DNA from: Planctomycetota bacterium | GTDB taxonomy: Bacteria; Planctomycetota; UBA11346 | NCBI GenBank assembly: GCA_016745075.1 | Contig: JADGDD010000002.1 | Coordinates: forward strand, 385,881-449,880 | DNA length: 64,000 nt | Reading direction: 5' to 3' | Part shown: positions 481 to 63,992 of the stretch, piece by piece | Position numbering within the stretch: position 1 is the stretch's first letter | Layout: every line of letters starts with the position of its first letter | Program-made: the position numbers and the translations under genes | Notes under the pieces: generated by a model | Database searches by the model: none | The model's input: the letters and a program-made list of their open reading frames with translations, nothing else | Told to the model about the DNA's origin: nothing

Positions 481-2718
481 ATGTTGGGTTTGGTTGTGTT
501 TTTGGTGGTGTTGGCCATTGGTTTCGTGATTTTTGTTCATGAATTAGGCCACTTCCTTTTTGCGAAGTGGGCTGGCGTGAAAGTGGAACGTTTTTCTATT
601 GGTATGGGGCCAGTTATCTGGAGTAAAAAAGTTGGCGAAACAGAATACGCCATTTCCCTGTTACCAGTTGGTGGCTATGTGGCTATGCTTGGTCAAAGTG
701 AAGTGCCAGGTGAAGTTGTTGATACCGAATCTGAAAATAGTTTTGCGGTAAAACATCCAGCATGGCGCGCAGCTATTCTGTCTGCTGGTGTGCTATTTAA
801 TTTAATTTCTAGCTATATTATTCTCCTTGCTTTGGCTTTTTACGGAACGCCAATTAACGAACCTGTTGTTGGTCATGTAGTGAAGGAATTTCGCGCAGTA
901 GATGACAGTTTAGTATTAAGCCCAGCTTATGAGGTTGGATTGCGTCCGGGAGATCGTATTCTTACCGTTAATGGCGTGAAAATCCGCTCCTTTAATGACG
1001 TGGTGATGAATACCATTTCCAGTGCTGATGACCCTATTGTATTAGAAGTTGAACGGGATGGTGCAACTTTACGTTTGCCAAAAACTGGCACTGGGGTTTT
1101 GCTTCGTCGTGATGAAAACCAAGGCCGTCCAGCTTTAGGGATACTTCCAGCGGTTGGTTTGAAAATTGGTAGAGTGGTTGCGGCACATGGTGTTGAGATG
1201 TCAGCAGATGCCCCGAAGGCGGGCGAACGTGTTATTGGTATTGAAGGTAGCAATGAAAACTTTGATGAATTGCGTTTTACTGGACAGCAAGCAGAGGAGC
1301 GTTTGCTGCCATTTATTGGCAAGGATGTTGGGTTACGAATGCAGGCTTCAGATGGCACCGAGCGCGTTGCCTCTTGTCGCTATGCCGGCATGTCGGCAAT
1401 AACAGATGCGGCATTAGGTTTGCCTGTGCGGATAGATCACGTTGCGAAAGGTTCTCCGGCAGCAGTAGCGGGTATGCAAGCGGGCGATGTTGTTGAACAA
1501 ATTGATGGTCAAGCTGTTGCTCATGTAGAACAATTGCGTGCTCTTGTTCGTGCCTCTGTTGCAGAGAAACGTTCAGTACAGATTGGTGTAATGCGTTATG
1601 AAAACGGGATCTGGGCTCGCAAAGATATGGCTATGCAGGCCGATTACGATGAGAGTATTGGCCGTATGGTGATTGGAGTGCGGATGAGCGCAATGCGTGT
1701 TGGTTCTGTACCCTTTTTACCAAAAACACTTGGGACTGACGTTTCTCCATTAGAACAGGCTGGTATCAAAGCTGGAGAAATTATTATTGGCATAGATACC
1801 ATCTATAAAGAAGAAGGAACGGAAATAGAGCGGATAGAGGCACGAGTATTGTCTGCTGGAACCATTCGTAGTCTCTCATGCAATAAAACCGCTTGGGATG
1901 AACTTACGCGCAGCCGGAAAGTGCACCCTATTTCACGGCTGGTGGGGATGAAAAATACTCCGTCCATCGTTAGCAAGCTTGCAGGAGGACGTGTCAGTGG
2001 AACTGCTGATAGCGCTCTTATTACTTTGCCAATAGAGAAGATGACGGGTGCACAGGCGGATAGCGTTGATGTCAGTCTTGAACGACTGGGCGGAACCCTA
2101 ATGCCATATCGTGAACAACTTATGGCCTTGAAACAAAATGAATGGATTGCAGATAGTTATAGCTGGACAGATAAAACTGGTGGAAATGCCTTAGCTATTA
2201 TCACTCCAGCAGTAGATGCGACAGTGCGCACTGTGTCATTACGGGTGCAAGATGTTGGAGTTGCCTTTGGCTTTACTTATGAAGAGCGGCCCTATCAAAT
2301 TTCTGATTGGACCGAAGCCTTTAGTGTTGCAAACGCTGAAACAGGCTCGCTTATTGGTGGAACGTTAAAGATTATTCCACGACTCTTTCAACCAGCATCT
2401 TCTGGAGGTATTGATGCAAGCAGTAGCTTATCTGGGCCTATTGGCATCTTTTCTATGATGATGTCTCAGTTGCAAGAAAACGGCTTTGCGAGCATGCTCA
2501 AGTTCACAGCCCTCATCGGTGTGAATCTATTCTTGATCAATCTCATGCCTATTCCAATGGTGGATGGTGGCCAGCTCTTATTTCTTGGGGTAGAAACTAT
2601 TCTGCGGCGGCCAATTCCAGAGCGTCTCAAGTTATTCCTGAATAATATTGGTTTTATTGCGATTATTGCTCTGATGCTCTTTGTTGTGGCCTTAGATATT
2701 GGTAGACAAATCGGATAA
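481..2718 (+). CDS. rseP: RIP metalloprotease RseP (site-2 protease, M50 family), long form with an extended multi-PDZ periplasmic region
   Basis: HELGH zinc-binding motif near the N-terminus inside a TM helix. C-terminal membrane segment carries the LINLMPIPMVDGG motif typical of RseP. The 745-aa length implies extra PDZ-like repeats between them. Confidence 0.85.
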   Translation: MLGLVVFLVVLAIGFVIFVHELGHFLFAKWAGVKVERFSIGMGPVIWSKKVGETEYAISLLPVGGYVAMLGQSEVPGEVVDTESENSFAVKHPAWRAAILSAGVLFNLISSYIILLALAFYGTPINEPVVGHVVKEFRAVDDSLVLSPAYEVGLRPGDRILTVNGVKIRSFNDVVMNTISSADDPIVLEVERDGATLRLPKTGTGVLLRRDENQGRPALGILPAVGLKIGRVVAAHGVEMSADAPKAGERVIGIEGSNENFDELRFTGQQAEERLLPFIGKDVGLRMQASDGTERVASCRYAGMSAITDAALGLPVRIDHVAKGSPAAVAGMQAGDVVEQIDGQAVAHVEQLRALVRASVAEKRSVQIGVMRYENGIWARKDMAMQADYDESIGRMVIGVRMSAMRVGSVPFLPKTLGTDVSPLEQAGIKAGEIIIGIDTIYKEEGTEIERIEARVLSAGTIRSLSCNKTAWDELTRSRKVHPISRLVGMKNTPSIVSKLAGGRVSGTADSALITLPIEKMTGAQADSVDVSLERLGGTLMPYREQLMALKQNEWIADSYSWTDKTGGNALAIITPAVDATVRTVSLRVQDVGVAFGFTYEERPYQISDWTEAFSVANAETGSLIGGTLKIIPRLFQPASSGGIDASSSLSGPIGIFSMMMSQLQENGFASMLKFTALIGVNLFLINLMPIPMVDGGQLLFLGVETILRRPIPERLKLFLNNIGFIAIIALMLFVVALDIGRQIG

Positions 2719-2800
2719 ATTGAAGCCTAGGATTCATTCCAAGTGGTGAACGGTTCTCCCCCTTTCTTTGTATGGTTGAGGGGCTAGTATACGTCTAATT

Positions 2801-5800
2801 ATGATGATGCGTTTCGTTTGTTTCTTGCTCGTACTAGCTCTTACTCCACTTACCGTGCCGCTTTGTGCGCAAGATGTCTATCGTGAAGTTTTACCGAATG
2901 GTGTTACGCTTGTCGTGGCAGAGCACCACGTAACAGGTTTGGTATCGGTGGAAGCCTTTGTTCGTGCTGGTCCAAGCTATGAGAGTGAACTACAAGGAAC
3001 AGGTGTAAGTGCTTTGGTAGAAAGCATGTTACGTGGATCTCCTGCTGTGCGTGGAGATTTGCAACGTTTAGGAAATGCGGTTTCATCAGAGACAGATGTG
3101 GGATGGACCAGCTACCGATTAATGGCTACTAGGAATGATATGTCGGAAGCGGTGCAGACCATGAGTCGATGGATCGGAGCCAGTGGTAATTTTGATGAAC
3201 AAACTTTTCAACGAGCGGTGCAACAACAACAGCGTGCGCAAGAGCAATCGCAGCAAGATGCCACATCGTTTCTAGCACAAGCTGTTCGCTCTGCTTTGTA
3301 TCAACGCGATGCTGCTCGTTTACCTGTACTAGGGAGTCCAGAGTTATTAAGTATGCTCACGTTGCCGCAGGTCCAGACCTACTATAATAAACGTTATACG
3401 GCTTCTCATATTGTCTTAGTTGTGACTGGTAATGTTCAGACCGAAGCTGTACGAGTAGCAGCCACAACAGCTTTTACCGGATTTCCCATTGGAAGTGAGC
3501 AACGTGAAGATGAACGGCGGATTGAGGCAGAGCAATTGCACCCTCGTGATCATGCTATGTATAGTCCGTCATTAAGCCCAGCATTAAATGAAAACCGTGT
3601 GTACTTAGCATGGCAGACTGTTGGCCTTGGGCATCCAGATCAACCTGCCTTAGAATTATTAGCGCAGTATTTAGATGACTCGGATTTACGTGTGCAAATG
3701 ACGGCAAAACAAATCGCCCGTCATTTCAAAGTTGAACATGTTGCCCCAGTTGGCCGTCCTGGTTATTTATTGGTAAGTTATGATGTTCGTGATGCAGAGC
3801 GTGGTGAAGCGTATCGACTTTTTCATGAAAGTATGCCGAGAATCGCAGCAGACATTCAAAAAACGGCATTACTTCATCGCCGTTATCGTAAATTGACACA
3901 AGGTAATCGTGCCGGAGAAATGCCGCCAGCAGACGTAGAACATCTTGAGTCAGCCAGTCAGGTATTATCTCATTTAGTCTCGCGTTTGGAAGCAAATAGG
4001 CGCACACGTTTATTGGTAGAAATTTCTCGTGATTTAGGTATGTGGGAATTGGCGGTACGAGATGCCACTGTTGGTGAGCAATTAAGTTCATTATATACAC
4101 AGGTTGATGCCAGCCGCATGGGAGCTGTTGTGAGCCGTTATATTCGTGGTTCAGGTTTTACTCGTTTTGTTGTACGTCCAGGTGAAGATCCGAAGAAAGT
4201 TGAACAGACGACAGAGATACGCGTTGAGCCTAAAGCACCCGTGGTTGATATAGATCCGGTCGTGAATAGCTATAGGAAGGTTCGCTTATTAACACATAGC
4301 ATGCCGTCATTGGGAGTGTGTTGGCTGCGGATGAGTTGTGGTGGTGGTAGCCGTGTTGAGCAAGATGGTGAACATGGTAGTGGATTATTACTCGCTCGTT
4401 TACTTGGTGTTGAAAGCGCCAAATATGAAACGGATGTTTTGCGTACGCTGTTGCGTGAACGTAATATGTCACTGAAGGTAGAACATACATCCAATGGTTT
4501 ACATATGACAGTTCGATGTTTTCGTACGGATGCAGCAGAAGCCTTAGAAATGTTGTGCGACGCTATGGTTCGTCCTGTTTTGAATAATGAACGTTTGGTT
4601 GAAGGGCAACAAGAAATAGAAACGCAACTTGCAGAATTGGCTCGTTTTGATGGTGAGTGGTCTGCAATTATACAGCAACTTATTCGAGAGAATATGTACC
4701 AAGATCATTATGCAGGAATTGCGTTAGATGATTTACAAACCAGCGTTGCAGATTTGCGACCAGAAGCGCTGGAGAAATTCCATAAAAAATTATTGCATGG
4801 CGGTAATGTTATTATCAGTGCAATTGGTGATTTTGATGAAGAGGAAGTTATTGATGTGGTTGAGGATAGCATGCTCCGCTACAAAGAATTTCGTGTAGCC
4901 CCTTTAAGTATTCCAGACCTTTCTGAACCAGTAAAAACAGCAGGCAATGGCGCGGAGGCAGCTCCAGTAGAGAATACAGGAGGAAGCACAACGAATGCAG
5001 AAAGAGTACGTGTGGATAAACGAAGTTGGTCACGCGAGCAAAGCGCTTGTGGCTTGGCATGGAGTACACCGTCTTTAGATGATGATGCGAAAACCCGTGC
5101 TATCATGGATGTGCTAGCCGCGGTAGTCATAGGAGGAAATGGCTCAGAGCTTCTCGGTGGTCGTTTGGGTTTCGCCATTGAACAAGCAACAGAAGGCATG
5201 GTTAGCAGCCGTCATGCACATTTAGAATATTACCACGGACGTGGAGCGCTTGTATTAAGTTTGTTGCTCAATGGAGGAACGGTGGAGTCTATTCGTGATG
5301 ACATTATTCAATCCGCTTTAGATCGCCTACTTGCCGACTTAAAGATAACCAAAAAACGAGCGGCTGAGGATGGTGGACAAGAAATGCCAGAGATTATCAC
5401 CTTTAGCTTGAATGAACTTGATGCAGCAAAAGCTGTTTGCTTGATTCGTCATGAACAAGAATTGGAGCAACAAGGCGATTCTTATTTATACCCAGAAACG
5501 TTGTTGCGAGAGCATTCCTTAGACGGTGTTACAACATATAGAGACCTTATTGCATCTGTAAGCGTTACAGACATTGCAACATTAGCACAAACAGTGTTGC
5601 AACAACCTGCATGTACTGTGTGGATTGCGCCAGAAGGCGAAGCGCTTATTACCCCAATTACTCCATCAACAACGGTAAGCACAACAACCGCTACGGCTGT
5701 GACCGTAAAGCCGATTACCCCTGCACTCACGCCAACGACAGTGCCGATCCCAGCAAATGTTGATACCGTATCACCGACAACACCAACAGTTACTCCAACG

Positions 5801-5815
5801 CCGGTAACACCTTAG
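2801..5815 (+). CDS. Secreted tandem M16 (pitrilysin/insulinase-like) family protein, probably catalytically inactive, with a Pro/Thr/Val-rich C-terminal tail
   Basis: N-terminal signal peptide (MMMRFVCFLLVLALTPLTVPLCA). Two M16-like halves in which the HxxEH zinc motif position reads SALVE/ARLLGVE. The last ~60 aa are a low-complexity ITPxTP/TVTPTP repeat. Confidence 0.55.
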   Translation: MMMRFVCFLLVLALTPLTVPLCAQDVYREVLPNGVTLVVAEHHVTGLVSVEAFVRAGPSYESELQGTGVSALVESMLRGSPAVRGDLQRLGNAVSSETDVGWTSYRLMATRNDMSEAVQTMSRWIGASGNFDEQTFQRAVQQQQRAQEQSQQDATSFLAQAVRSALYQRDAARLPVLGSPELLSMLTLPQVQTYYNKRYTASHIVLVVTGNVQTEAVRVAATTAFTGFPIGSEQREDERRIEAEQLHPRDHAMYSPSLSPALNENRVYLAWQTVGLGHPDQPALELLAQYLDDSDLRVQMTAKQIARHFKVEHVAPVGRPGYLLVSYDVRDAERGEAYRLFHESMPRIAADIQKTALLHRRYRKLTQGNRAGEMPPADVEHLESASQVLSHLVSRLEANRRTRLLVEISRDLGMWELAVRDATVGEQLSSLYTQVDASRMGAVVSRYIRGSGFTRFVVRPGEDPKKVEQTTEIRVEPKAPVVDIDPVVNSYRKVRLLTHSMPSLGVCWLRMSCGGGSRVEQDGEHGSGLLLARLLGVESAKYETDVLRTLLRERNMSLKVEHTSNGLHMTVRCFRTDAAEALEMLCDAMVRPVLNNERLVEGQQEIETQLAELARFDGEWSAIIQQLIRENMYQDHYAGIALDDLQTSVADLRPEALEKFHKKLLHGGNVIISAIGDFDEEEVIDVVEDSMLRYKEFRVAPLSIPDLSEPVKTAGNGAEAAPVENTGGSTTNAERVRVDKRSWSREQSACGLAWSTPSLDDDAKTRAIMDVLAAVVIGGNGSELLGGRLGFAIEQATEGMVSSRHAHLEYYHGRGALVLSLLLNGGTVESIRDDIIQSALDRLLADLKITKKRAAEDGGQEMPEIITFSLNELDAAKAVCLIRHEQELEQQGDSYLYPETLLREHSLDGVTTYRDLIASVSVTDIATLAQTVLQQPACTVWIAPEGEALITPITPSTTVSTTTATAVTVKPITPALTPTTVPIPANVDTVSPTTPTVTPTPVTP

Positions 5816-5824
5816 GAATACTGC

Positions 5825-6226
5825 GTGAAGTTATTAATAAAATTAATACTTATTGGAGCCTTTTTATTGGCTGTCTATATTGGCGGTTATTGGCTCTATG
5901 CACGATCAGATTATGTGACAAGTAACAGCTTTTTTGGAAAAAATCTTGTTGTGTATGAAGATAGTACTCTTTCAAATATGTGCTTCACTGTATTTCGCCC
6001 TTTGATTTCCTTACAAAGCTGGATGGACGATTCGACCGTATTTAACGCGAAAGAAAATATAGATACAGTAAAAAATTCAATTGAAGACTTTCAAAATGTG
6101 CTCGAAGAGCAATCTGAATCAGCGAAAGAAATCTGGAAGCCTGTTGCTGAAAGCTTAGAACAGAGCGTGGATGATTTAGAAAAACAGCGTCAACAACATA
6201 AGAAGAAAGCCGACGGAGAAGAATAA
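5825..6226 (+). CDS. Hypothetical small membrane-anchored protein (GTG start) with an acidic coiled-coil-like C-terminus
   Basis: One N-terminal hydrophobic helix ([23 protein letters not shown]). Ends 2 bp before thyA. No family recognised. Confidence 0.35.
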
Positions 6227-6228
6227 AT

Positions 6229-7077
6229 ATGCGTCCGTATTTAGATTTATTGCAACATATTTTAGATAATGGTATAGATCGTTCTGATCGTACTGGCACT
6301 GGTACCTTAAGTGTATTTGGCCATCAAATGCGTTTTGATATGGCAGAGGGTTTTCCTTTACTGACGACCAAAAAAGTACACGTAAAGTCTATCATTAAAG
6401 AATTATTATGGTTTTTAAGTGGCTCAACAAATGTCGTGCCCTTGCAAGATGCGGGTGTGCGTATTTGGAATGAATGGGCTACGGCAGAGCAGTGTGCTCG
6501 CTTTGGTCGGGAAGAGGGCGATCTTGGCCCTATCTATGGGCATCAATGGCGAAACTTTGGCGCGAGCATAAATGAAGATGGGAGCTATGCCTCTAATGGC
6601 GTAGATCAAATTGTTCAGGTTATTGATCAGATTCGCAATAATCCAAGTAGCCGCCGTTTAATCGTTTCTGGTTGGAACCCACAAGAGGCCGATCAGGTTG
6701 CATTACCGCCTTGTCATACTCTATTTCAGTTTTATGTCGATGAAGGAGCAGGTTTATTACATTGCCAACTGTATCAGCGTAGTGCCGATGTCTTTCTTGG
6801 TGTGCCTTTTAATATTGCCAGCTATGCGGTATTAACGATGATGATCGCGCAAGTTACTGGCCTTAAGGCAGGTACTTTTGTCCATACTCTTGGTGACGCA
6901 CATTTATATAAAGATCATCTAGAGCAGGCGCGTTTACAGTTAAGCCGAGATCTGCGTAGCAGACCAACCATGACTTTAAACCCAGCAGTAGATGATATTT
7001 TTAAATTCACCTATGAAGATTTTGCGGTTACCGATTATGACCCGCATCCACATATTAAGGCAAAGGTATCAGTCTAG
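6229..7077 (+). CDS. thyA: Thymidylate synthase
   Basis: Translation begins [32 protein letters not shown] and contains the PPCH active-site region ([13 protein letters not shown]) and a typical C-terminus. 282 aa. Confidence 0.95.
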
Positions 7078-7556
7078 TGTCAGAACAACTCGCTCTTATG
7101 GTGGCCTATGCTCAGGATCGTATTATTGGCAATGGCAATGATATCCCGTGGCATTATCCAGAAGATTTTAAACATTTTAAAACAACGACGATGGGTCATG
7201 CTCTGATTATGGGTAGGCTCACGTGTGAATCTATCGGCCGTCCATTGCCGGGCCGTCGTAATATATTGGTGACTCGTCAAGCTGATTACCAAGCACTCGG
7301 TTATGAAGTGTTCACTGATCTGGATGCGGCACTTGCCGCAGCGCGCGAAACAGATGACATGCCATTTATTTGTGGTGGTGGTAATATTTATAAACAAATG
7401 TTGCCACAAGTAACGCGTATGTTCATTAGTGAAATAGATATCGCTGTTGAAGGTGATACGGTATTTCCAGAATGGGAAACCGATACAAGCTGGCAAGAAA
7501 TAAGTAGTCGTCGAAGTGATTGCATCACCTATCGTGAGCTTGAACGCCGTTTATAG
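7077..7556 (+). CDS. folA: Dihydrofolate reductase
   Basis: MVAYAQDRIIGNGNDIPWHYPEDFKHFKTTTMGHALIMGR matches the DHFR N-terminal signature. GTG start overlaps the thyA stop by 1 nt. 159 aa. Confidence 0.9.
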   Translation: MSEQLALMVAYAQDRIIGNGNDIPWHYPEDFKHFKTTTMGHALIMGRLTCESIGRPLPGRRNILVTRQADYQALGYEVFTDLDAALAAARETDDMPFICGGGNIYKQMLPQVTRMFISEIDIAVEGDTVFPEWETDTSWQEISSRRSDCITYRELERRL

Positions 7557-7562
7557 AAGGAA

Positions 7563-8099
7563 ATGAAGATGTCTCAATCACAAGAACGAAATGAAGACCA
7601 ATTACCATCAGCAACCCTTGGTACACGTCGAGAAACACCGTTTACGTATACACCGTCGTTATTAGAATCTATTACTATAGACATTAAACGCCCTTTTGCC
7701 GGACAACATAGTTGGGTTACTAATAATTGTTTGCGTTTCACGGCTTTGTGTCCAGTGACAGGTCAGCCTGATTGGGCTGACATCTGTATTAATTATATCC
7801 CTAAGCAACATCTTGTTGAATCAAAAAGTCTCAAAGAATATCTTGGTTCATTTCGTATGCATGGTGATTTTCATGAAGATGTGTGTCGTATCTTTTGTGA
7901 AGATATAGTGGAATGTATTCAACCGACTTACATAGAAGTCATTGGCCAATTTGATAGCCGTGGCAGTATTGCTATTTGGCCGTATGTTCAGTGGGCAGAT
8001 CCGAGTAGTGCATGGGCAGTGGAATTGCAGCGTGAACGTTGTCTGCATTATGCTCCCGGTAAATATAGTGCTCAACAATCATATACACGTTCTATTTAG
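7563..8099 (+). CDS. queF: NADPH-dependent 7-cyano-7-deazaguanine reductase, unimodular type I
   Basis: FTALCPVTGQPDWA catalytic Cys region and the E(S)KSLKxYLxSFR QueF motif. 178 aa fits the YkvM-type unimodular form. Confidence 0.85.
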   Translation: MKMSQSQERNEDQLPSATLGTRRETPFTYTPSLLESITIDIKRPFAGQHSWVTNNCLRFTALCPVTGQPDWADICINYIPKQHLVESKSLKEYLGSFRMHGDFHEDVCRIFCEDIVECIQPTYIEVIGQFDSRGSIAIWPYVQWADPSSAWAVELQRERCLHYAPGKYSAQQSYTRSI

Positions 8100-8107
8100 G
8101 AAGCGGT

Positions 8108-9736
8108 ATGTCAGATCGTAAATTGCTCTGGAGAGATATTGGTGGCATTCATGCACCGGCTCGCCGCATCACCATTCGTTTGCCGGAGGGTTATGCTTCT
8201 TCTGATGAACGTTATCCTGTGTTGTATATTCATGATAATGGATTGCTTGCTTGTCATGATCAGTTGGTGCAGTTGGGATATATTACTCCCTGCATCTTAG
8301 TTTCTGTGCCATCACCAGATCGTAATTATGAATACACATTGCCTGCGCCAGAAGGAGGCCTAGGGGAATGTCTTGTTGGTGGAAGCGAAGCGTACGCACA
8401 GTTTTTAATCCAAGAATTAAAACCAAAAGTAGATGCTGAATTACGTACACGTCCTGAAGCGGCTACAACGGGTACTACAGGCTGTTCATTGGGCGGTTTA
8501 ATCTCTATGTATTTAAGTGTGAAACATGGAGATGTTTTTGGTATGGCAGGATGCTTGTCGCCATCACTTTGGTGGAATGACAAAGCGCTTCTGAATGATA
8601 TGCAAAAAGAATTACCAGCTAAAGGAACACGCTTTTGGTTGAGTGCTGGATCATATGAAAATAGCATGTGGCATGATGCACGTGATGCGTCGGCTATTTT
8701 ATTAGCAGCCGGTTGGGTGGAAGGCGAAGACCTCGCATGGCTTCATGACCCAGAAGGTGAGCATGCTAGTTGGTATTGGAAAAAACATCAGATGCATATG
8801 TTAGGTTTTTTGTTGGGGATAGATGTGCCAGCACCAAGCAGTATGCATGTAGAGAAGCATCATAGACGTGGCCCTGTGCGCATGAATATGGAAGATGCAC
8901 ACGGAACGCATATTGTGTGTCAGGTGAATCATGGTTATCATTTTCAACGAACGGCAGTCGCTCCACAGTGGGACAGCGCAGACCCTGCAATTATTACGGT
9001 GAATCAGATCGGTAAAATTGAATCATGGTCAGAAGGTAAGACAAAATTGTCTGCAATTCATAATGACTTTGCCGCAGATATTACCATATTTACTCCAGGC
9101 CCACAAACATTGCCACAAGCAGGCTGTATACAGCCAAGACAGACAGCGGTGTTAAATGCAACAGGCCAATGGATAGAAGAACCGCGTTTTACCGGAGGAG
9201 AACATCCCTGTATAGATGAGCCGATGCAATGGGATTGTAGTATTTCTGATACAGGCTTAACCATTACTGTTCGTGTTGTGGAAGATGAGTTGCAGGTTTT
9301 ACGTGGTCCCGGCTCATGGGGACAAGACCGTCTTGAATTGTATATAGATCTGCGTCCAGAATCAGAACGGAGAGCAGGTCGGGCACAAGGTAAACAATCT
9401 GCCTATGTTAGTATTGTTCCTCTATTTTATGACGAACATTGGAAAGTTGGTGGTGGTGCATTAGATTCAGAATCAACACGGGTATTTATTGATGAAGAAG
9501 GATATACCGTACAGACAACATTGCCGCATACGTGGTTGAACGAACGTCTTACGGCTTGTGATGGTCAACATAGCACAAGCGAGTGGACAGAACTCTGGTT
9601 GAATATTCATGCCTGCCACATTAACAGTGTAACAGGCCGAGAGGTACGCGAACAATCTGTGCCAGCAATATATGCGGATCATTGGATTCCTGGTTCAGGA
9701 ATTATCAGCCGAGGTTCAGAGTCAGCGGAAACATAA
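8108..9736 (+). CDS. Putative esterase family protein (alpha/beta hydrolase, enterochelin-esterase-like) with a ~250 aa C-terminal extension of unknown function
   Basis: YPVLYIHDNG and the GCSLGG nucleophile-elbow motif (GxSxG). The C-terminal half has no recognisable domain. Confidence 0.65.
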   Translation: MSDRKLLWRDIGGIHAPARRITIRLPEGYASSDERYPVLYIHDNGLLACHDQLVQLGYITPCILVSVPSPDRNYEYTLPAPEGGLGECLVGGSEAYAQFLIQELKPKVDAELRTRPEAATTGTTGCSLGGLISMYLSVKHGDVFGMAGCLSPSLWWNDKALLNDMQKELPAKGTRFWLSAGSYENSMWHDARDASAILLAAGWVEGEDLAWLHDPEGEHASWYWKKHQMHMLGFLLGIDVPAPSSMHVEKHHRRGPVRMNMEDAHGTHIVCQVNHGYHFQRTAVAPQWDSADPAIITVNQIGKIESWSEGKTKLSAIHNDFAADITIFTPGPQTLPQAGCIQPRQTAVLNATGQWIEEPRFTGGEHPCIDEPMQWDCSISDTGLTITVRVVEDELQVLRGPGSWGQDRLELYIDLRPESERRAGRAQGKQSAYVSIVPLFYDEHWKVGGGALDSESTRVFIDEEGYTVQTTLPHTWLNERLTACDGQHSTSEWTELWLNIHACHINSVTGREVREQSVPAIYADHWIPGSGIISRGSESAET

Positions 9737-55060: not shown

Positions 55061-55208
55061 ATAATATATCGAGAGTGCTAGGTGTCTAGGTCAGCAATGC
55101 GCAAAAATAAGTCCGTCTATTTATGGACCCAAAGAGTTAAAACTTTAACTGAGAAGGGGAGGCAAGGGGCTTACTAGCATTAACGAAGCAGACCTATCGT
55201 AGACCCAA

Positions 55209-55850
55209 ACCTTCAAACGGAGGTATAGAGAGTGATGCTCATGTGCATAGAAAATTTGTGTAATAAGGGAAAACGGGAAAGAAAACATATTCAACCCTTC
55301 CCCCTTTCCCAATTTTCCCCACCTTACACAAACCACTCTTCAGACGGATGTATAGAGAGTGATGCTCATGTGCATAGGAAATTTGTGTAATAAGGGAAAA
55401 CGGGAAAACGGGAAAGATGGGAAGGTGGGAAAGAAAACATATTCAATCCTTCCCCATTTTCCAATTTTCCCCTTTCCCCACCTTACACAAACCACTCTTC
55501 AGACGGATGTATAGAGAGTGATGCTCATGTGCATAGGAAATTTGTGTAATAAGGGAAAACGGGAAAGATGGGAGAATGGGAAAGAAAACATATTCAACCC
55601 TTCCCCATTTTCCAATTTTCCCCTTTCCCCACCTTACACAAATCACCCGCTCTACCTTTTACCACTACAATAGAACAAGAGAATCCATGTCTATAAGTTC
55701 CGTAATTAAATCCATTCAAGACATTATGCAGACAGTGCGCTCATGTGCATAGAAAATTTGTGTAATAAGGGAAAACGGGAAAGAAAATATATTCAATCCT
55801 TCCCCTTTTTCTAATTTCCCTTTTTTCCCGCCTTACACAAAATCAACCGA
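55209..55850. repeat. Tandem array of four copies of a structured non-coding repeat (unit ~127-216 bp) containing variable-number GGGAAAR / TTTYCCC subrepeats
   Basis: GATGCTCATGTGCATAG starts at 55234, 55361, 55520 (diverged copy at ~55737). Conserved TTTGTGTAATAAGGGAAAACGGGAAAG...AAAACATATTCAAYCCTTCCCC...ACCTTACACAAA core in each copy. Confidence 0.8.
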
Positions 55851-56398: not shown

Positions 56399-56989
56399 AT
56401 GCATTGGTCATATTGGATAGTATTTCCGCTGGTAGCGGCGCTGATTGGTTACGCGACGAATTGGATAGCGGTACGGATGTTATTTCACCCACGTAAGCCG
56501 CGTTTTGGTTTGCATGGCTTGTTACCACGCCGACAAAATGAGTTGGCGGAACGGGTTGGTAAGGTGGTTGGTGAAGAGCTTATTGTTTTGGATGAGTTAT
56601 TAGAGCCACTCACCGATATTGATATAACAACACCATTGCGTGAGATCATAGATAAAGTGATGGAAACCAAGTTGGCAGATCTGCAAAAGATGCCACTGAT
56701 TGGTGCTATGATTACCCCAGAACGTTTGGCACCGTTGCGGGAAGGTGTTATTCGTGAAGTCGAAAAACATAAAGAAGAGTTGATGCGGGCAGTTATGCAT
56801 GCGGCTCGTGAAAACATGGATGTGGCAGAATTAGCTCGGCAGAAATTGGCCTCTTTTGAGTTAGATAGATTAGAAGATATTGTGAACCGAGTTGCTCATC
56901 ACGAATTTCGTGCTATCGAGTTATGGGGTGCCGTTTTAGGCCTCTTTATCGGGTTATTGCAAGCAGCCTATTTGTGGGTTATGGTTTAA
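56399..56989 (+). CDS. DUF445 (UPF0754-like) family membrane protein, short form
   Basis: N-terminus WIVFPLVAALIGYATNWIAVRMLFHPRKPRFGLHGLLPRRQNELAERVGKVV matches the DUF445 N-terminal pattern. 196 aa. Confidence 0.55.
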   Translation: MHWSYWIVFPLVAALIGYATNWIAVRMLFHPRKPRFGLHGLLPRRQNELAERVGKVVGEELIVLDELLEPLTDIDITTPLREIIDKVMETKLADLQKMPLIGAMITPERLAPLREGVIREVEKHKEELMRAVMHAARENMDVAELARQKLASFELDRLEDIVNRVAHHEFRAIELWGAVLGLFIGLLQAAYLWVMV

Positions 56990-57082: not shown

Positions 57083-57916
57083 GTGACAGATATCCGTTCA
57101 GACCAGATGATTCTTTGTGATGATGCGCCACCGCAAGGTTGGGCGCAAGAAATGGCAACAGTGTTGTCACAAGGCTCATTAACGGGTGATCAAGTTGCGC
57201 AAATAGATGAACGTATCGTTGGTCTTGGTCATGGTGTAGAGCTTGCTCACTTGCGGACCCCATTGGTTACAGAGCCAACACTTGGTGCGTATAAGAAACA
57301 GGATGCCAATGAAGGACATTTGTGGCTGTGGTTGGTCGTTCTTATTCCACAGTCTGATGCATCTCGCCACCTTGGTTGGATGGCTCACTTGGCAGCAGGC
57401 CTCAAGGATGACGCAAGCCGCCAAACCCTTTTAGAGGCACATTCAGCGATAGCAGTGGAAGAAGCTTTGGAAGATATGCTGGCGGTTCACACGCATCGTT
57501 ACCGATCGGTTCGGAGTGGAGACACATCCACTATAGAGAGAAAAGATGCAGATAGCAGCCAAAAGTCGCAGTCGGATGTTGATTGGAAATTAGTGGTCGC
57601 TATTTTGAAAGAAGAAACCTACGTCGATGATTTGTTAGCGCTTTTTGTTGAACATGATATTCGTGGTGCGACTTTGCTAGAGGCCCGCGGTATGGCAGAA
57701 CACCTCGCGGCACATATGAGTTTGTTTGCTGGGTTTAAAAGCGCATTTAAGGCTGTTGGTCATAGCCAAGTTATTCTGTCATTGGTTCCCAATGGCCGTG
57801 TGCGTGAGGTTTTGGAAATGGTTAAAACGGCTGCTGGTGGTATGGTTACGCCTGGGGCTGGCATTGCCTTTGCATTGGATGTTCCAATGGTTGTTGGTTT
57901 GAATAAAGGCGAATAA
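57083..57916 (+). CDS. Fusion protein: PTS EIIA type-2 (EIIA-Ntr/PtsN-like) domain + P-II-like (GlnB-fold) domain
   Basis: EIIA-2 phospho-His region GLGHGVELAHLRTPLVTEP. C-terminal 110 aa align in pattern to GlnB (KLVVAILKEETYVDDLLALFVEHDIRGATLLEARG...QVILSLVPNGRVREVLEMVKTAAGGMVTPGAGIAFALDV). GTG start with AGGAG RBS. Confidence 0.65.
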   Translation: MTDIRSDQMILCDDAPPQGWAQEMATVLSQGSLTGDQVAQIDERIVGLGHGVELAHLRTPLVTEPTLGAYKKQDANEGHLWLWLVVLIPQSDASRHLGWMAHLAAGLKDDASRQTLLEAHSAIAVEEALEDMLAVHTHRYRSVRSGDTSTIERKDADSSQKSQSDVDWKLVVAILKEETYVDDLLALFVEHDIRGATLLEARGMAEHLAAHMSLFAGFKSAFKAVGHSQVILSLVPNGRVREVLEMVKTAAGGMVTPGAGIAFALDVPMVVGLNKGE

Positions 57917-57919
57917 GGC

Positions 57920-59107
57920 GTGCAGGTCCTTATTCTTATTGTTGCTGGTTTGTTGGCTTTGGGTTTGCCAACATCGTCGCCTCTATCTGGGAAACGTCGG
58001 CTGTGGCATCCGTGGATAGAAAGTGGTCTGTTTCCGATTATTGTTGGTATGGTCACTCATGTCTTAGCCGTTCCGAAAGCTGCACATGAAGAGTTTGCTT
58101 TGCAATGGCGGCCGTTGCTTGCTCTGGCACTGGCTACGGCAGGAGTGCTTGTCGGAACACAACTGCGTATGGCTTATGTCCATCGAGCAGGCAAACCATT
58201 TTTATTAAACCAAAGCTACGCGGCTTGTATACAAGGACTTGCAGTAGCAGGGGTGTTAGTGCTGATCTTCTCATTCACAACAGATTGGCATCCTTTAATG
58301 GTGTTGGCTTGTGTTGGTATGTCGGCTGCGTTGGCTATCGCATCAAGTCAGCGTCCATTACTTGGCTGTGGTAATATTTTGCGACGGGATGTCGTCGGTA
58401 AACATATTGCTCCGAGTGGGTGGTGGAATCTGATTGCATTATTTGTTGGTAGTTTGTCTTTGCAGCTTGGTTTAATGAATACAGATACCGAACTCATTCC
58501 GTGGGTAGAGCCGCGCCTGCAAGTGTTGCTTGTTTCGGTGTTTCTCGGTTTAACGCTTGGTCGCTTAACGGTGGGGGTAAAAGCGAGCGGTGAGTCTTCA
58601 CTCTTCTTACTCGCTATTCTCGCGCTCTCCGGCGGTGTTGCTCTGTTGTTTGACGGGTCACCAATGTTAACGGGTCTGATTGTTGGTGCTGTGTTTGCAA
58701 ATGTGGCGCTTGGCCGTTTAGCGATGATAGAACGGCAATTGGCTGATCTTGAGCAACCCTTAGTGGTGGTCATTGGTTTTTTGTGTGGCTTGCTGATGCC
58801 ACTCGAAACAATACAGATATGGCTGTGGGCTATCCCTGCTGTTGTTCTCTGTGTTCGTTATGCGGTGCGGGCTTTTTATTGTCCAACGTCTCCATTAATT
58901 GGTGATCGCATGGAGCGCGCGCTTGTGCCACCAGGGGCTACTGGTGTGTTGTTATTGGGGAGTTGTGTACTTGCCCCAGGCATAGGGACCGAATTGGCAG
59001 TACCCGTGTTTGTGGCCTGTACGATTGCTCTGCTGGTTGGTGAAATATATGAAGTACGTTATTTACGCCGTGGGGTGCTGACTGCTCCAACAGGGCGTGC
59101 TTTGTAA
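57920..59107 (+). CDS. Polytopic membrane protein (putative permease/transporter, ~11-12 TM helices) immediately downstream of the EIIA-PII fusion
   Basis: Hydrophobic helices throughout. Gly-rich segments (LSGGVALLFDGSPMLTGLIVGAVFANVA). 4 bp after the upstream stop. Family not identified (SbtA-like or DUF1538-like is possible). Confidence 0.55.
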   Translation: MQVLILIVAGLLALGLPTSSPLSGKRRLWHPWIESGLFPIIVGMVTHVLAVPKAAHEEFALQWRPLLALALATAGVLVGTQLRMAYVHRAGKPFLLNQSYAACIQGLAVAGVLVLIFSFTTDWHPLMVLACVGMSAALAIASSQRPLLGCGNILRRDVVGKHIAPSGWWNLIALFVGSLSLQLGLMNTDTELIPWVEPRLQVLLVSVFLGLTLGRLTVGVKASGESSLFLLAILALSGGVALLFDGSPMLTGLIVGAVFANVALGRLAMIERQLADLEQPLVVVIGFLCGLLMPLETIQIWLWAIPAVVLCVRYAVRAFYCPTSPLIGDRMERALVPPGATGVLLLGSCVLAPGIGTELAVPVFVACTIALLVGEIYEVRYLRRGVLTAPTGRAL

Positions 59108-59109
59108 TG

Positions 59110-59529
59110 CTATGACCAAGTACTCCAATTAGAGAGTGCATGGATGGCAAAAGCATAGACGAAAATAATCAGGCTTACAATAAAGCCACTTCCTACCGCT
59201 ATCGTTGTTGTACGTGGGTGTGCAAGCCAGTACATCGGTAATGGTAGTACCATTGTTATACCAAGGGTAATAAATGACCAACACATCAGGGTCATGCTCC
59301 AGCCAGACAGTTCTGCTCCAGTTCGTGATAAGCGAAGAATCAATTGTCCGCGTGCGAGGCTCATAATGCCTGCGCTAAAGAGACCTGTGCCAGCGATGGA
59401 ACAGAGTGCCAGAGAAATAGAGATCGATACTTTATCCCAAAACCGTGCGCGTTTACGAACAGCATCCATCAGCTCCGCAAGCCGCGAAGGGTATGGTTTG
59501 TTGGGGCCTTCATTTTGTCGAAATGGCAC
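59110..59529 (-). CDS. Hypothetical small membrane protein (3 predicted TM helices)
   Basis: ORF with a basic N-terminus and hydrophobic segments. Convergent with the transporter gene. No family recognised. Confidence 0.3.
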   Translation of the reverse strand: MPFRQNEGPNKPYPSRLAELMDAVRKRARFWDKVSISISLALCSIAGTGLFSAGIMSLARGQLILRLSRTGAELSGWSMTLMCWSFITLGITMVLPLPMYWLAHPRTTTIAVGSGFIVSLIIFVYAFAIHALSNWSTWS

Positions 59530-61046: not shown

Positions 61047-63992
61047 TTAAGCACCCATTGGATGGGCACCCAGTGTACCGCTCAGATTTTCCAAGTAGGA
61101 AGCGCTGTCAATTTCTTCCAGTTTTTCTTTCGCTTCTGCTAGGCGCTGATGTACGTTTAAGCGTTCTGCTTCATCAGTATGAGACGTACGTTCCAAGAAC
61201 GAAGACAGTGCGTTGCAATGGCGTTCCCAGAGTTTGCTGTCTCGTTGTTGTTTCGTGCGTAGACGTTGCGCGTACCATTCACTGTTGAGGACACTTTCGC
61301 GGGTAAACAGGTCACGAACTTCTGAGTCAGTGATTGTTTTACCTTCGTAACTGCCAGTTGCCATAATGTGCAACAAAGCACGTAATGGTGGGCAGGCTTC
61401 TTCAACAGAACCATCGTCTAAATATTTTTGAGCAACACGTTGTTGTGCTTCAACAATATTATTAATGCCATCAGCAAAATTTTCTAAGCTTTGTAGCTCA
61501 GGCTTGAGCATGATGTCATCAAATACTTCAGATGGTTGGTCAAATAAACGGCCGAAGAAGGTGTGCAAGAATTTGGTGGTAATGCGGTAGCCAAGGCGGC
61601 TTGCATGAACCATTTGTCCGTCATGTTCAAAGTCTTCAAGTTTTTCAAGATGACCATCTGCAATGAGTGATTGTGGTTCGTATTCATGTGGATGCAGACG
61701 ACACCATAATTCAGGAATGAGCAAGCTTACATCATGATCGACACGACGCTCGTGACCAACATAGCCAGCAGCAGAAGAGAAACCTTGGTAGCCACACAGA
61801 ATAAAGCCGAGTAAGGCGTTATTTAAGTCAGCAGTAGCGCGGAGGGCGTTAAACGGTCCTTTAGTTAATGCGCCTTCAGAACCAGCACCAGTGGTTGATG
61901 GAGATTTACCAGTGAGGCTACAAATGAAATCCATAAACAATTCTGGAAGTTCTTGATAATGAATTGGGTTGTATACGGCTAATGGACGAATACCCGGTTC
62001 TGCAGGGTTATTACGACGACCAGGCAGAACAACGTTCACTGGATTAATAACCTGTTTGTTGACTGGAACGCGGCGTTTCAGGCGCGCACCAACTTCTGCA
62101 ATATAGCTATCACGTTGATCGAGCAGTTTTTCAGAGGTTTGCAAGTAACGTGGGTTTTTGGTTGGTTTGCCATTAACGATGCGTGGATGGGCAGAAGACA
62201 CAACAAAGGTATCTTCGTGACCTTCTTCTTCGTTTTCAGCGGTCTTTTTAATGAGGTCCTGCATTGGTTGTGTCCATGCAGAGAAATCAACACTGTTTTG
62301 AACCAGTTCTTGTGATTCTGTTTGGGTCATTGGTTTGTAGTTAGAAATGAAGACGCTATGGCCACCAAAGCCAGCAAGGTCACTTTCTGCCTGTTTATCA
62401 AACCCACGTACAATGGCTTCGTCTGGACGTTGGAAGAATCTGTTTTCACAGTTGGTTACTAATTTACAGCTTGGTAGGTCGAACTCGGCATAGACATTAT
62501 GCAGGGTGTTGGTGTTGACAATTGTTGAGACAGAAATGTCATCTTCCATCTGTATTTTGTCGGCTGGCATAAAGTCTTGGCGTAGTTTATGTGTGCGCCA
62601 GCTTCCATTGGTGCTGACACCAATGCGTAAGTAGTTTGCAACCAGTTTACGGCCCATGAAACGGAGTTCATGGCCAGGCCCACCATTAACGGTGTCTACA
62701 TTGAAGAACATGCGCCAGTTATCTTCCCAGCTGTCTGCATAGAATCGCTTAATAATGAAGAGCATTGCTGTGATGTGGCTTGGGATGGTTTCCAGCCAGG
62801 CATTGTATTCATCGGTAAACTCATTTGGTGATGGGGTAAACAATTTAATAACAGAACCAAGTGAGCGTTTTTGCGAGAGAAGTGGACGGGATGGTTTGTC
62901 TGAATAATCAGGACGGAATTTTTCAAGCAAACGATCTGAATAATCGCGTTTAAATAATTCGTCAATAATATCGAAATCTTTTTCCATATCTGCGGTGAAA
63001 ATTGGGCCGTAAATAATTGCATCAGAAATAGATTTTGAAATTTCAGACTTACCACCGCCAGAAACCGTACATGGTTTATGACAGAAAACACCTTCAGAAA
63101 CGGTGCCGACTAAACGCCAGCTTGGCGCAGCGGTATGTTTTTCCATGCGTACTTTGAATCCAGATGGATAAACATAGGTATGGGCTGCTAATAATGGTAG
63201 TTTTTGTTTTTGACCAAGGTGAACCCATTCAATGCTTTGCTTATCACGGTAGATAATCGCATCTTCTTGGATGTAAATAATATTTGGATATTTTTTATCT
63301 ATGGCATAGCCATTCGATTGAATGTCCATCATAGATGAGAACAGTGCGGTTGCATCAGCAAAGGTGTGGGTCATCGCATCTTGATGCTGGCAGTACATTT
63401 CACCCAAAGAGTATGAGGCGAAGGCGAGTGCGCCGCCTGCGTGTTCTTCTTCGGTTGCACCGTAGAGGTTGCTAGAGAAAGAAATTTGTGTTTTAACTTC
63501 TTTTTTGCAGTAGCCAAAATAGTTATCTGCAATCAGAGTGACGATAACGCCATCTTCATTACGTGCGCAGATTTTAAATGGAAGACCATCGTTGTAGAGT
63601 TCGTCGTCTTCTTTGTAGCACATGCCATCGGCTTTTTGGCGTTTGTTTGCTTTCTTAAATGGTGGCAAGCCAAGGTCTTTTTTGCGCAAGCCACGAATAT
63701 GTGGAGCAAGAATGACACAACCTGTATGGCCGGTCCAATGTTCTACATCAAGAGCAGCGTCATTTTCTGGCAGGTATGGAGCACCAGCATTGCCAAAAAT
63801 AGATTCAACAAAGTCAAGGTTACTGACTAAGCTGCCAGGAGCAAAAAAGCGAACTTCTAGGCTTTTCTCTGGGCTGACATCTGGTACTTCTGGGCAGACG
63901 GTTGGACGCAAGAGCAAAGATGCCCAACAAGACGCTTTTTCTTCTGAAGTGCTGGTGAATGGCAACTGCATGATATCGTCTGGTGGAGTCAA
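61047..63992 (-). CDS. Large conserved protein of unrecognised function, C-terminal 981 aa seen. The ORF continues past the window end, so the N-terminus is missing
   Basis: Uninterrupted 2.9 kb ORF with ordinary amino-acid composition and no internal stops. Size and composition suggest a large soluble enzyme. I could not assign a family from motifs. Confidence 0.55.
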   Translation of the reverse strand: MTPPDDIMQLPFTSTSEEKASCWASLLLRPTVCPEVPDVSPEKSLEVRFFAPGSLVSNLDFVESIFGNAGAPYLPENDAALDVEHWTGHTGCVILAPHIRGLRKKDLGLPPFKKANKRQKADGMCYKEDDELYNDGLPFKICARNEDGVIVTLIADNYFGYCKKEVKTQISFSSNLYGATEEEHAGGALAFASYSLGEMYCQHQDAMTHTFADATALFSSMMDIQSNGYAIDKKYPNIIYIQEDAIIYRDKQSIEWVHLGQKQKLPLLAAHTYVYPSGFKVRMEKHTAAPSWRLVGTVSEGVFCHKPCTVSGGGKSEISKSISDAIIYGPIFTADMEKDFDIIDELFKRDYSDRLLEKFRPDYSDKPSRPLLSQKRSLGSVIKLFTPSPNEFTDEYNAWLETIPSHITAMLFIIKRFYADSWEDNWRMFFNVDTVNGGPGHELRFMGRKLVANYLRIGVSTNGSWRTHKLRQDFMPADKIQMEDDISVSTIVNTNTLHNVYAEFDLPSCKLVTNCENRFFQRPDEAIVRGFDKQAESDLAGFGGHSVFISNYKPMTQTESQELVQNSVDFSAWTQPMQDLIKKTAENEEEGHEDTFVVSSAHPRIVNGKPTKNPRYLQTSEKLLDQRDSYIAEVGARLKRRVPVNKQVINPVNVVLPGRRNNPAEPGIRPLAVYNPIHYQELPELFMDFICSLTGKSPSTTGAGSEGALTKGPFNALRATADLNNALLGFILCGYQGFSSAAGYVGHERRVDHDVSLLIPELWCRLHPHEYEPQSLIADGHLEKLEDFEHDGQMVHASRLGYRITTKFLHTFFGRLFDQPSEVFDDIMLKPELQSLENFADGINNIVEAQQRVAQKYLDDGSVEEACPPLRALLHIMATGSYEGKTITDSEVRDLFTRESVLNSEWYAQRLRTKQQRDSKLWERHCNALSSFLERTSHTDEAERLNVHQRLAEAKEKLEEIDSASYLENLSGTLGAHPMGA

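Follow-up and report, generated by a model that had tools for sequence, protein, structure and literature searches.

EIIA(Ntr)-like/P-II-like fusion protein encoded beside a divergent antiporter-fold membrane protein in Planctomycetota: a putative regulator and its presumed membrane target

The T-loop of P-II proteins is their contact element for targets. Cation-transport targets of PtsN in E. coli are YcgO, TrkA and KdpD. In the pairs SbtB/SbtA (from cyanobacteria, SbtA being a bicarbonate transporter) and GlnK/AmtB the P-II-fold protein is encoded beside its transporter and co-expressed with it, and the T-loop inserts into the cytoplasmic side of the transporter and blocks transport (PMC10710835). 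Unphosphorylated PtsN binds and inhibits YcgO, a K+/H+ antiporter of the cation/proton antiporter (CPA) group CPA1 (PMC11808508), and the phosphorylation state of an EIIA-Ntr-type histidine controls a CPA-type antiporter via direct binding (PMC11808508, PMC13104625). The locus described here occupies positions 57083–59107 of a 64,000-nucleotide stretch (the window) of contig JADGDD010000002.1 of a Planctomycetota bacterium. It consists of two adjoining genes on the forward strand (Table 1). The first encodes a protein, here called the regulator, in which a predicted EIIA-Ntr-like domain is fused to a predicted P-II-like domain. The second encodes a polytopic protein, here called CPA-A, which is a highly divergent member of the CPA superfamily. 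The locus is interpreted as a module of regulator and membrane target, in which the T-loop would dock on the membrane partner and phosphorylation of His56 would modulate the docking; the analysis regards this as the likeliest interpretation and places it at an even balance.

Regulator gene starts with GTG, six bases 3' of AGGAG. The junction with the membrane-protein gene is read as 'GAA TAA GGC GTG', and translational coupling of the two genes is likely from this arrangement. Overlap or near-abutment of stop and start is likewise present in three related loci (L008, L009, L013).

The AlphaFold2 (AF2) model of the regulator, built on the family alignment, contains two folded domains and has a mean predicted local distance difference test score (pLDDT) of 83. 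Residues 1–133 are modelled at pLDDT above 90 and take up the alpha/beta fold of EIIA-2 in the model. When the model is compared with PDB by Foldseek, IIA-Ntr (2a0j) is the top match (E=1e-6, TM score 0.68 on the target, 139 columns); further matches to the EIIA fold are 1a6j, 3urr and 4gqx. The profile of the close family also recovers PtsN structures from PDB (2a0j, E=9e-5); the N-terminal domain has its best matches, by sequence as by structure, in solved structures of PtsN. In the profile alignment 'GHGVELAHLR' is set against 'GQGVAIPHGR' of PtsN, which places His56 on the active-site His, and 'RHLGWMAHLAA' against the helix 'EHLEVLSKLA'. In EIIA-2 domains the phospho-acceptor loop follows the pattern G-x-G-h-A-h-P-H. 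Across close and distant fusions no column other than that of His56 is invariant; the residue is His in 44 of 44 fusion-length cluster representatives. A second conserved motif, a His-Leu pair in a helix, is kept in 39 (His96) and 40 (Leu97) of the 44, and 28 have a basic residue at position 58 (R/K58), two residues beyond His56. Residue R44 was considered as a counterpart of the conserved Arg of the active site and dropped, since two alignments differ on it. Because no family member reaches the equivalog cutoff of PtsN, the domain is a member of the EIIA-2 superfamily and not a PtsN orthologue. NCBIfam has no model for either the regulator or the membrane protein.

The C-terminal domain satisfies in its model the description of a P-II fold, a ferredoxin-like double beta-alpha-beta unit with the T-loop between beta2 and beta3 (strands at residues 168–175, 197–200, 229–236 and 260–267, helices at 178–190 and 237–250, loop at 201–228). 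Foldseek returns dozens of P-II structures (GlnB, GlnK, GlnZ, plant and cyanobacterial P-II; E about 1e-5, TM scores of 0.7–0.82 on the target). The c-di-AMP receptor PstA is among the matches. The Pfam model PF00543 is matched over nearly its whole length (residues 169–274, profile positions 2–99 of 102), below the cutoff (E=0.036, 14.8 bits vs 25). Stand-alone relatives P0091, P0094 and P0099 pass this cutoff (30.6–33.4 bits) and match the profile of the close family at about 1e-15 (whole-library E-values), so the C-terminal domain is linked to P-II transitively. Comparison with verified E. coli GlnB by hhalign runs in register over 92 columns at a probability of only 32%, though Pfam and fold matches point to the same register; the aligned blocks are 'GATLLEARGMAEH' with 'GMTVTEVKGFGRQ' and 'PGAGIAFALDV' with 'IGDGKIFVFDV'. 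In the same 32% alignment the contacts of GlnB to ATP, ADP and 2-oxoglutarate are replaced (K58 by Q229, K90 by I261, R101 by G272, R103 by N274). Glycines of the B-loop (GDGKIF in GlnB) are kept as G258 and G260. The position of K90 is hydrophobic in all 44 fusions. The position of K58 carries a basic residue in 32 of the 44 and is thus kept by most distant members.

Within the close family, conservation is stronger in the P-II-like half than in the EIIA half. Its T-loop segment, residues 201–228, is the most conserved stretch, with 16 of the 45 invariant alignment columns. The segment is hydrophobic ('SLFAGFKSAF') and about nine residues longer than the T-loop of GlnB. Its core L-F-x-x-F is retained across the 44 fusions (L214 in 40, F215 in 43, F218 in 42).

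An earlier note on this DNA, made from the letters, had proposed an EIIA type-2 domain with a phosphorylatable His, a linker, a C-terminal P-II-like domain with a T-loop-like segment, and tight coupling to a downstream gene for a polytopic membrane protein. These proposals agree with the profile and fold matches given above, with the predicted disorder of the linker, with the spacer of 3 nt and with the helices of the membrane protein described below. Conservation of the gene order in related genomes, named there as a check, is also found.

Related loci with known surroundings number 11, ten of them from species-representative genomes, all Planctomycetota metagenome-assembled genomes (MAGs), and one from a metagenome contig. 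A homologue of the membrane-protein gene lies immediately downstream in 11 of 11, an adjacency far beyond chance. Four operon types are recognized. In type a (window and L001–L004) the fusion is followed by CPA-A, with or without a preceding DUF445 gene, and no second antiporter is present in the flanks or in the 64-kb window. In type b (L005–L007) the order is fusion, CPA-A and a canonical antiporter of PF00999 (CPA-B). In type c (L008–L011) a stand-alone P-II-like gene (125–154 aa) takes the place of the fusion before CPA-A and CPA-B. In type d (L013) a fusion with a canonical EIIA is followed by a partner that keeps 'FDD' (CPA-A') and by CPA-B (PF00999 E=6e-29), accompanied by a gene for a universal stress protein. 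L014 and, partially, L015 have the fusion and then CPA-A'. Since stand-alone P-II-like genes hold the same operon position, the conserved core is the P-II-like protein with CPA-A, and EIIA is an added input. CPA-B stands directly after the divergent gene in L005–L011 and L013 (PF00999 E from 1e-16 to 6e-29); it is a frequent third partner and is absent from the clade of the window. Beyond the pair of genes described in the earlier note, most related operons add a canonical PF00999 gene, which is absent here.

The DUF445 gene immediately precedes the fusion gene in the window and, at 48–52% identity, in L002, L003 and L004, not in L001. It may have replaced the second antiporter gene functionally, or may be a clade-specific neighbour. 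In the window it is separated from the regulator gene by 93 nt on the same strand, with only a weak terminator-like hairpin, and is possibly part of the same operon. A promoter and terminator scan of the locus gave chance-level signal, by which operon boundaries are not defined.

The fusion is not confined to the close family. A word-indexed search gives 43 full-length homologues of the regulator (260–291 aa, 42–59% identity), nearly all from metagenomes and one annotated as a Planctomycetes MAG; they are annotated as 'nitrogen regulatory protein P-II 1' in one database source and as hypothetical in others. An exhaustive hidden Markov model (HMM) search with the close-family profile against 1.84 billion cluster representatives (50%-identity clusters) gives 451 proteins at E<=1e-3, of which 73 reach <=1e-10 and 10 reach <=1e-30. 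Among the best 150 of the 451 matches, about 100 shorter proteins match the P-II-like half only, mostly stand-alone proteins of about 110–120 aa and some fragments, and about 40 proteins of about 265–335 aa match both halves and are further EIIA-2/P-II-like fusions. Distant fusions carry a full-length canonical EIIA-2 (PF00359 E from 1e-19 to 1e-25, 56–88 bits); their best NCBIfam model is PtsN, below its cutoff. Stand-alone and distant-fusion groups have in common the T-loop signature (P/S)(L/I)FAGF(R/K), in its fuller form (G-M-G/A)-x5-7-(P/S)-(L/I)-F-A-G-F-(R/K). Judged from these alignments, the fusion is a recurrent architecture, the clade of the window is a diverged branch of it, and the putative phospho-acceptor His is constrained throughout. 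The metagenome scan gave 8 loci, mostly short; the gene context of the second distant subgroup (C-termini 'KGSM..') lies outside its coverage. A tblastn search of 72,556 plasmids with two distant fusions found ordinary stand-alone EIIA/PtsN genes only and no fusion.

In locus L019 (positions 1260–3213 and 6257–8027) the gene of a stand-alone P-II-like protein (121 aa, T-loop 'IPLFAGFREIL') immediately precedes an AtpI/Z-like gene, atpB and atpE, and four universal-stress-protein genes are close by. This suggests a linkage of the P-II-like family with other ion-translocating machines.

The AF2 model of CPA-A is polytopic, with about 12–13 helices (pLDDT 81.6, predicted template modelling score 0.82), and has the NhaA/NhaP-type fold, of the NhaP/NHE kind. 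No Pfam model is matched by the 395-aa protein or by 22 homologues, even at E<=1 (PF00999, 0 of 23). The only sequence link to PF00999 is a profile-profile comparison of the family with the PF00999-positive protein P0071 (97.8% probability, E=7e-13, 336 columns). On the grounds of this link and of the fold, the protein is placed in the CPA superfamily; it is neither SbtA (PF05982) nor DUF1538, the identities named for checking in the earlier note. Comparison of the CPA-A and CPA-B profiles is weak (55%).

Family of CPA-A lacks the acidic ion-binding motif (ND/DD/QD). The invariant 'GWWN' is aligned with 'GFDD' of the L013 partner and with 'LDD' of P0071. Conserved Asp residues are absent from the family, and Glu is conserved only at E271, E278 and E378, all outside the motif region. 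Absence of a conserved carboxylate from the ion-binding-motif region is a robust reading of the alignment. Conserved polar residues are Q81/R83, Q144/R145, N170 and N261; in the model the invariant pair Q144/R145 falls in a segment without helix that separates two helices. Canonical CPA proteins (PF00999; NhaP, NHE/SOS1, KefC, NapA) differ from CPA-A, in which a Pfam match is lacking, the acidic residues are replaced and R145 is invariant. Because Asn and Trp replace the catalytic Asp pair, a role as a standard cation/proton exchanger appears unlikely. The family is an unannotated branch of the antiporter superfamily without catalytic carboxylates.

With the module interpretation the following course of regulation is proposed. 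The P-II-like domain would dock on CPA-A from the cytoplasmic side through its T-loop and gate or lock it, as in GlnK/AmtB and SbtB/SbtA. His56 would be phosphorylated by HPr or NPr of a regulatory phosphotransferase system (PTS) without transporters. The phosphorylation state would alter the hold and release of the P-II-like domain by EIIA, or the contact of EIIA with the membrane protein. Phosphoenolpyruvate (PEP)/pyruvate status, that is, carbon and energy status, would thereby be passed to the membrane protein. The regulator would be the in-cis counterpart of unphosphorylated PtsN inhibiting YcgO. In the clade of the window the PTS input may also substitute for the classical sensing of effectors by P-II, as the earlier note had suggested; this is plausible because the canonical contacts to ATP, ADP and 2-oxoglutarate are absent. 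According to a published report, Planctomycetes have an EI of the regulatory group (EI/HPr chain) and no PTS transporters (PMC2405797); such a chain would provide the donor of the phosphoryl group. In Azospirillum, ligand fishing with the P-II protein GlnZ recovered TrkA and a putative EIIA-Ntr; the complex of GlnZ with EIIA-Ntr was unconfirmed by pulldown (PMC7646526). This hints that the P-II and EIIA-Ntr systems may meet at regulators of cation transport in trans; the fusion would then be the in-cis version.

The locus resembles SbtB/SbtA and GlnK/AmtB, which together with the inhibition of YcgO by PtsN are its nearest precedents, in that a P-II fold is encoded beside a membrane protein, here with strict synteny and with the T-loop as the most conserved part. 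It differs from both in the partner, which is of the NhaP/NHE fold and not SbtA or Amt, and in the regulator, which lacks the canonical nucleotide-binding residues, has a longer hydrophobic T-loop and carries EIIA fused in front. From PtsN, which acts in trans from the rpoN cluster, the regulator differs by the fusion of EIIA to a P-II-like domain within the operon of the transporter. From YcgO, CPA-A differs by the absence of the cytoplasmic CorC/RCK tail, which is the PtsN-binding part of YcgO, and of the catalytic Asp motif. PstA/DarA and further non-canonical P-II-like proteins resemble the regulator in a P-II fold whose loops are remodelled and whose ligand specificity departs from the canonical one; unlike it, they are stand-alone c-di-AMP receptors without EIIA fusion, and features of c-di-AMP binding are not evident in the regulator.

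Several observations weigh against the proposed docking and phosphorylation. The match of the regulator to PF00359 is sub-threshold and covers residues 46–130 (E=5.7e-4, 20.3 bits vs cutoff 27), and its score with the PtsN equivalog model TIGR01419 lies far below the cutoff (16.2 vs 138.7 bits). In the clade of the window Ala stands where Pro normally precedes the phospho-acceptor His, and about five residues are deleted before the active-site loop; both changes could impair docking of HPr or NPr. No signature motif of EI, HPr or HprK is present within the window. The T-loop is modelled at low pLDDT. The register of the mapping of GWWN on DD is uncertain by 2–3 positions between alignments. 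Searches of PDB sequences gave nothing useful here, only spurious low-complexity matches (PDZK1IP1) for the membrane-family profile and zero matches for P0071 and for the canonical CPA-B partner, so no solved structure anchors the mapping of the catalytic motif at the sequence level. Since P-II proteins form trimers, and CPA transporters as a rule dimers, a symmetric trimer-to-trimer plug of the GlnK/AmtB kind is not guaranteed.

The partner may, alternatively, be a catalytically dead 'pseudo-antiporter', an anchor or regulatory subunit that forms, for example, a heterodimer with a canonical CPA, the canonical antiporter, and not transport by CPA-A itself, being controlled by the regulator through CPA-A. 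The family without conserved Asp, with 'GWWN' in place of a DD-type motif, is consistent with such a subunit, as are the dimeric state of CPA transporters and the canonical gene that directly follows the divergent one in operon types b–d; the divergent/canonical pairing also recurs without a P-II gene, beside trehalose synthesis genes, in L022. The window and its four closest relatives, however, have no canonical CPA gene adjacent or within the available flanks; the divergent protein therefore works alone or pairs with the product of a gene located elsewhere. Moreover, its complete, strongly conserved fold and the conserved polar residues listed above fit a substrate site of a different type. 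The dead-subunit explanation is considered unlikely.

In locus L022 (positions 3709–9729) a gene for a 430-aa protein with weak PDZ matches stands before the CPA-A-like gene (P0072, 391 aa), and genes for a 918-aa fusion of a Na+/H+ exchanger domain with trehalose-6-phosphate synthase (Glyco_transf_20) and for trehalose phosphatase come after it. A pair of divergent and canonical antiporters therefore exists without a P-II-like gene, in a context of osmoadaptation.

Equally improbable is a second explanation, in which the EIIA-like domain is a degenerate structural or ligand-binding module without phosphotransfer and regulation proceeds only via the P-II-like domain or via some other ligand. 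An EIIA-like fold serves as a structural or ligand-binding module in the cytoplasmic domain of Band 3, and weak Band_3_cyto matches are found in some relatives. The sub-cutoff scores, the change of Pro to Ala, the deletion and the lack of PTS genes in the window, all given above, are consistent with degeneration. The conservation of His56 in all 44 fusions, together with His96 and R/K58 in most of them, is hard to explain without a catalytic or phospho-acceptor constraint. The more distant members, moreover, have a fully canonical EIIA-2, and the regulatory PTS chain reported in Planctomycetes argues in the same direction.

A literal SbtB/SbtA-type bicarbonate uptake system, suggested by a P-II-like gene that adjoins a polytopic transporter gene and by the presence of SbtA within the wider CPA-type fold class and among the weak structural matches of the membrane protein, is contradicted by the fold and sequence comparisons and is very improbable, since PF05982 is unmatched, no similarity of the P-II-like domain to verified SbtB is detectable by hhalign (probability 1.5%), against the SbtB likeness drawn in the earlier note, and no carbon-concentrating genes are nearby.

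A broader proposal is rather doubtful. It regards the fusion as a 'Rosetta-stone' regulator that would join in a single polypeptide systems of the PTS-Ntr and P-II types, elsewhere found as separate proteins, with a new class of antiporter-fold proteins without acidic residues as its target; these would act as phospho-controlled 'pseudo-antiporter' subunits of canonical CPA or as non-cation transporters.

Table 1. Features of the locus and their positions in the window
Feature	Position	Strand	Description	Basis
Regulator gene	57083..57916	+	277 aa; EIIA-Ntr-like domain, linker and P-II-like domain	ORF (open reading frame) list, 43 full-length homologues, AF2 model
EIIA type-2 (EIIA-Ntr-like) domain	57083..57481	+	Residues 1–133; diverged, slightly shortened	Pfam, PtsN profile, Foldseek
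His56 codon	57248..57250	+	Predicted phospho-acceptor in 'GHGVELAHLR'	Aligned to PtsN active-site His
Interdomain linker	57491..57559	+	Residues 137–159; predicted disordered, poorly conserved	pLDDT <50; length and sequence variable in alignment
P-II-like domain	57584..57913	+	Residues 168–277; beta-alpha-beta / long loop / beta-alpha-beta	AF2, Foldseek, Pfam, hhalign
Extended T-loop-like segment 'GMAEHLAAHMSLFAGFKSAFKAVGHS'	57683..57766	+	Residues 201–228; 28-residue loop, proposed docking element	
Gene junction	57914..57922	+	TAA stop, 3-nt spacer, GTG start of membrane gene; AAGG just 5'	
Membrane-protein gene (CPA-A)	57920..59107	+	395 aa; divergent CPA superfamily (NhaP/NHE fold)	
Invariant 'GWWN'	58418..58429	+	Residues 167–170; region of the acidic CPA ion-binding motif in relatives	
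DUF445 membrane-protein gene, upstream	56399..56989	+	196 aa	Pfam PF04286, E=1e-23

Other elements of the surroundings are as follows. An ORF of 139 aa on the reverse strand (59110–59529) is convergent on the end of the membrane-protein gene, its stop lying 3 nt from that of CPA-A; it has apparently hydrophobic stretches and no family match, and the public assembly annotates it as a gene. A gene on the reverse strand (61047–63992) belongs, by public annotation, to the PPi (pyrophosphate)-dependent phosphoenolpyruvate carboxykinase family (PF26300; 1155 aa when complete). That a gene for an enzyme of PEP metabolism lies at a distance of about 2 kb from the gene of a regulator putatively under PEP-PTS control is probably coincidental. 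Between the gene for a 1194-aa TPR protein and the DUF445 gene (55187–55845) four tandem copies of a unit of about 150 nt are present. Each copy contains a long imperfect hairpin rich in purines and pyrimidines, with the arms TTTGTGTAATAAGGGAAAACGGGAAA / TTTCCCCTTTCCCCACCTTACACAAA. The 26-nt hairpin arm occurs 4 times in this array and nowhere else in the window; 0 occurrences are expected by chance. The matches of the locus to Rfam were all sub-threshold, miRNA-like or hairpin-shaped, and located in this upstream repeat array.

The full-text literature searched, in which subscription journals are thinly covered, yielded no account of a fusion of EIIA with a P-II-like domain and none of CPA antiporters under the control of P-II-like proteins; the T-loop signature of the P-II-like family is likewise without a description in that literature. 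The earlier note had not recognised the fusion as an architecture already described, and the literature searched agrees. The fusion is not a one-off, since relatives of about 275 aa with a canonical EIIA-2 exist and L013 has the same operon layout. Precedents exist for each component and for each regulatory principle; there is none for the combination, for the T-loop signature or for the antiporter-fold partner without carboxylates.

Among the most widespread systems of metabolic signalling in bacteria are P-II and the nitrogen-related PTS, each of which is separately known to control transporters of ions and nutrients by direct binding. The family defined by the T-loop signature is an addition to the P-II superfamily. 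The carboxylate-less antiporter branch raises the question whether its members transport a substrate or act as regulatory subunits. The locus would offer a compact system of one regulator and one membrane protein for the study of how phosphorylation of a His is relayed through a P-II scaffold. A natural fusion encoded beside its presumed membrane target would be strong genomic evidence that both pathways converge on the same class of targets.

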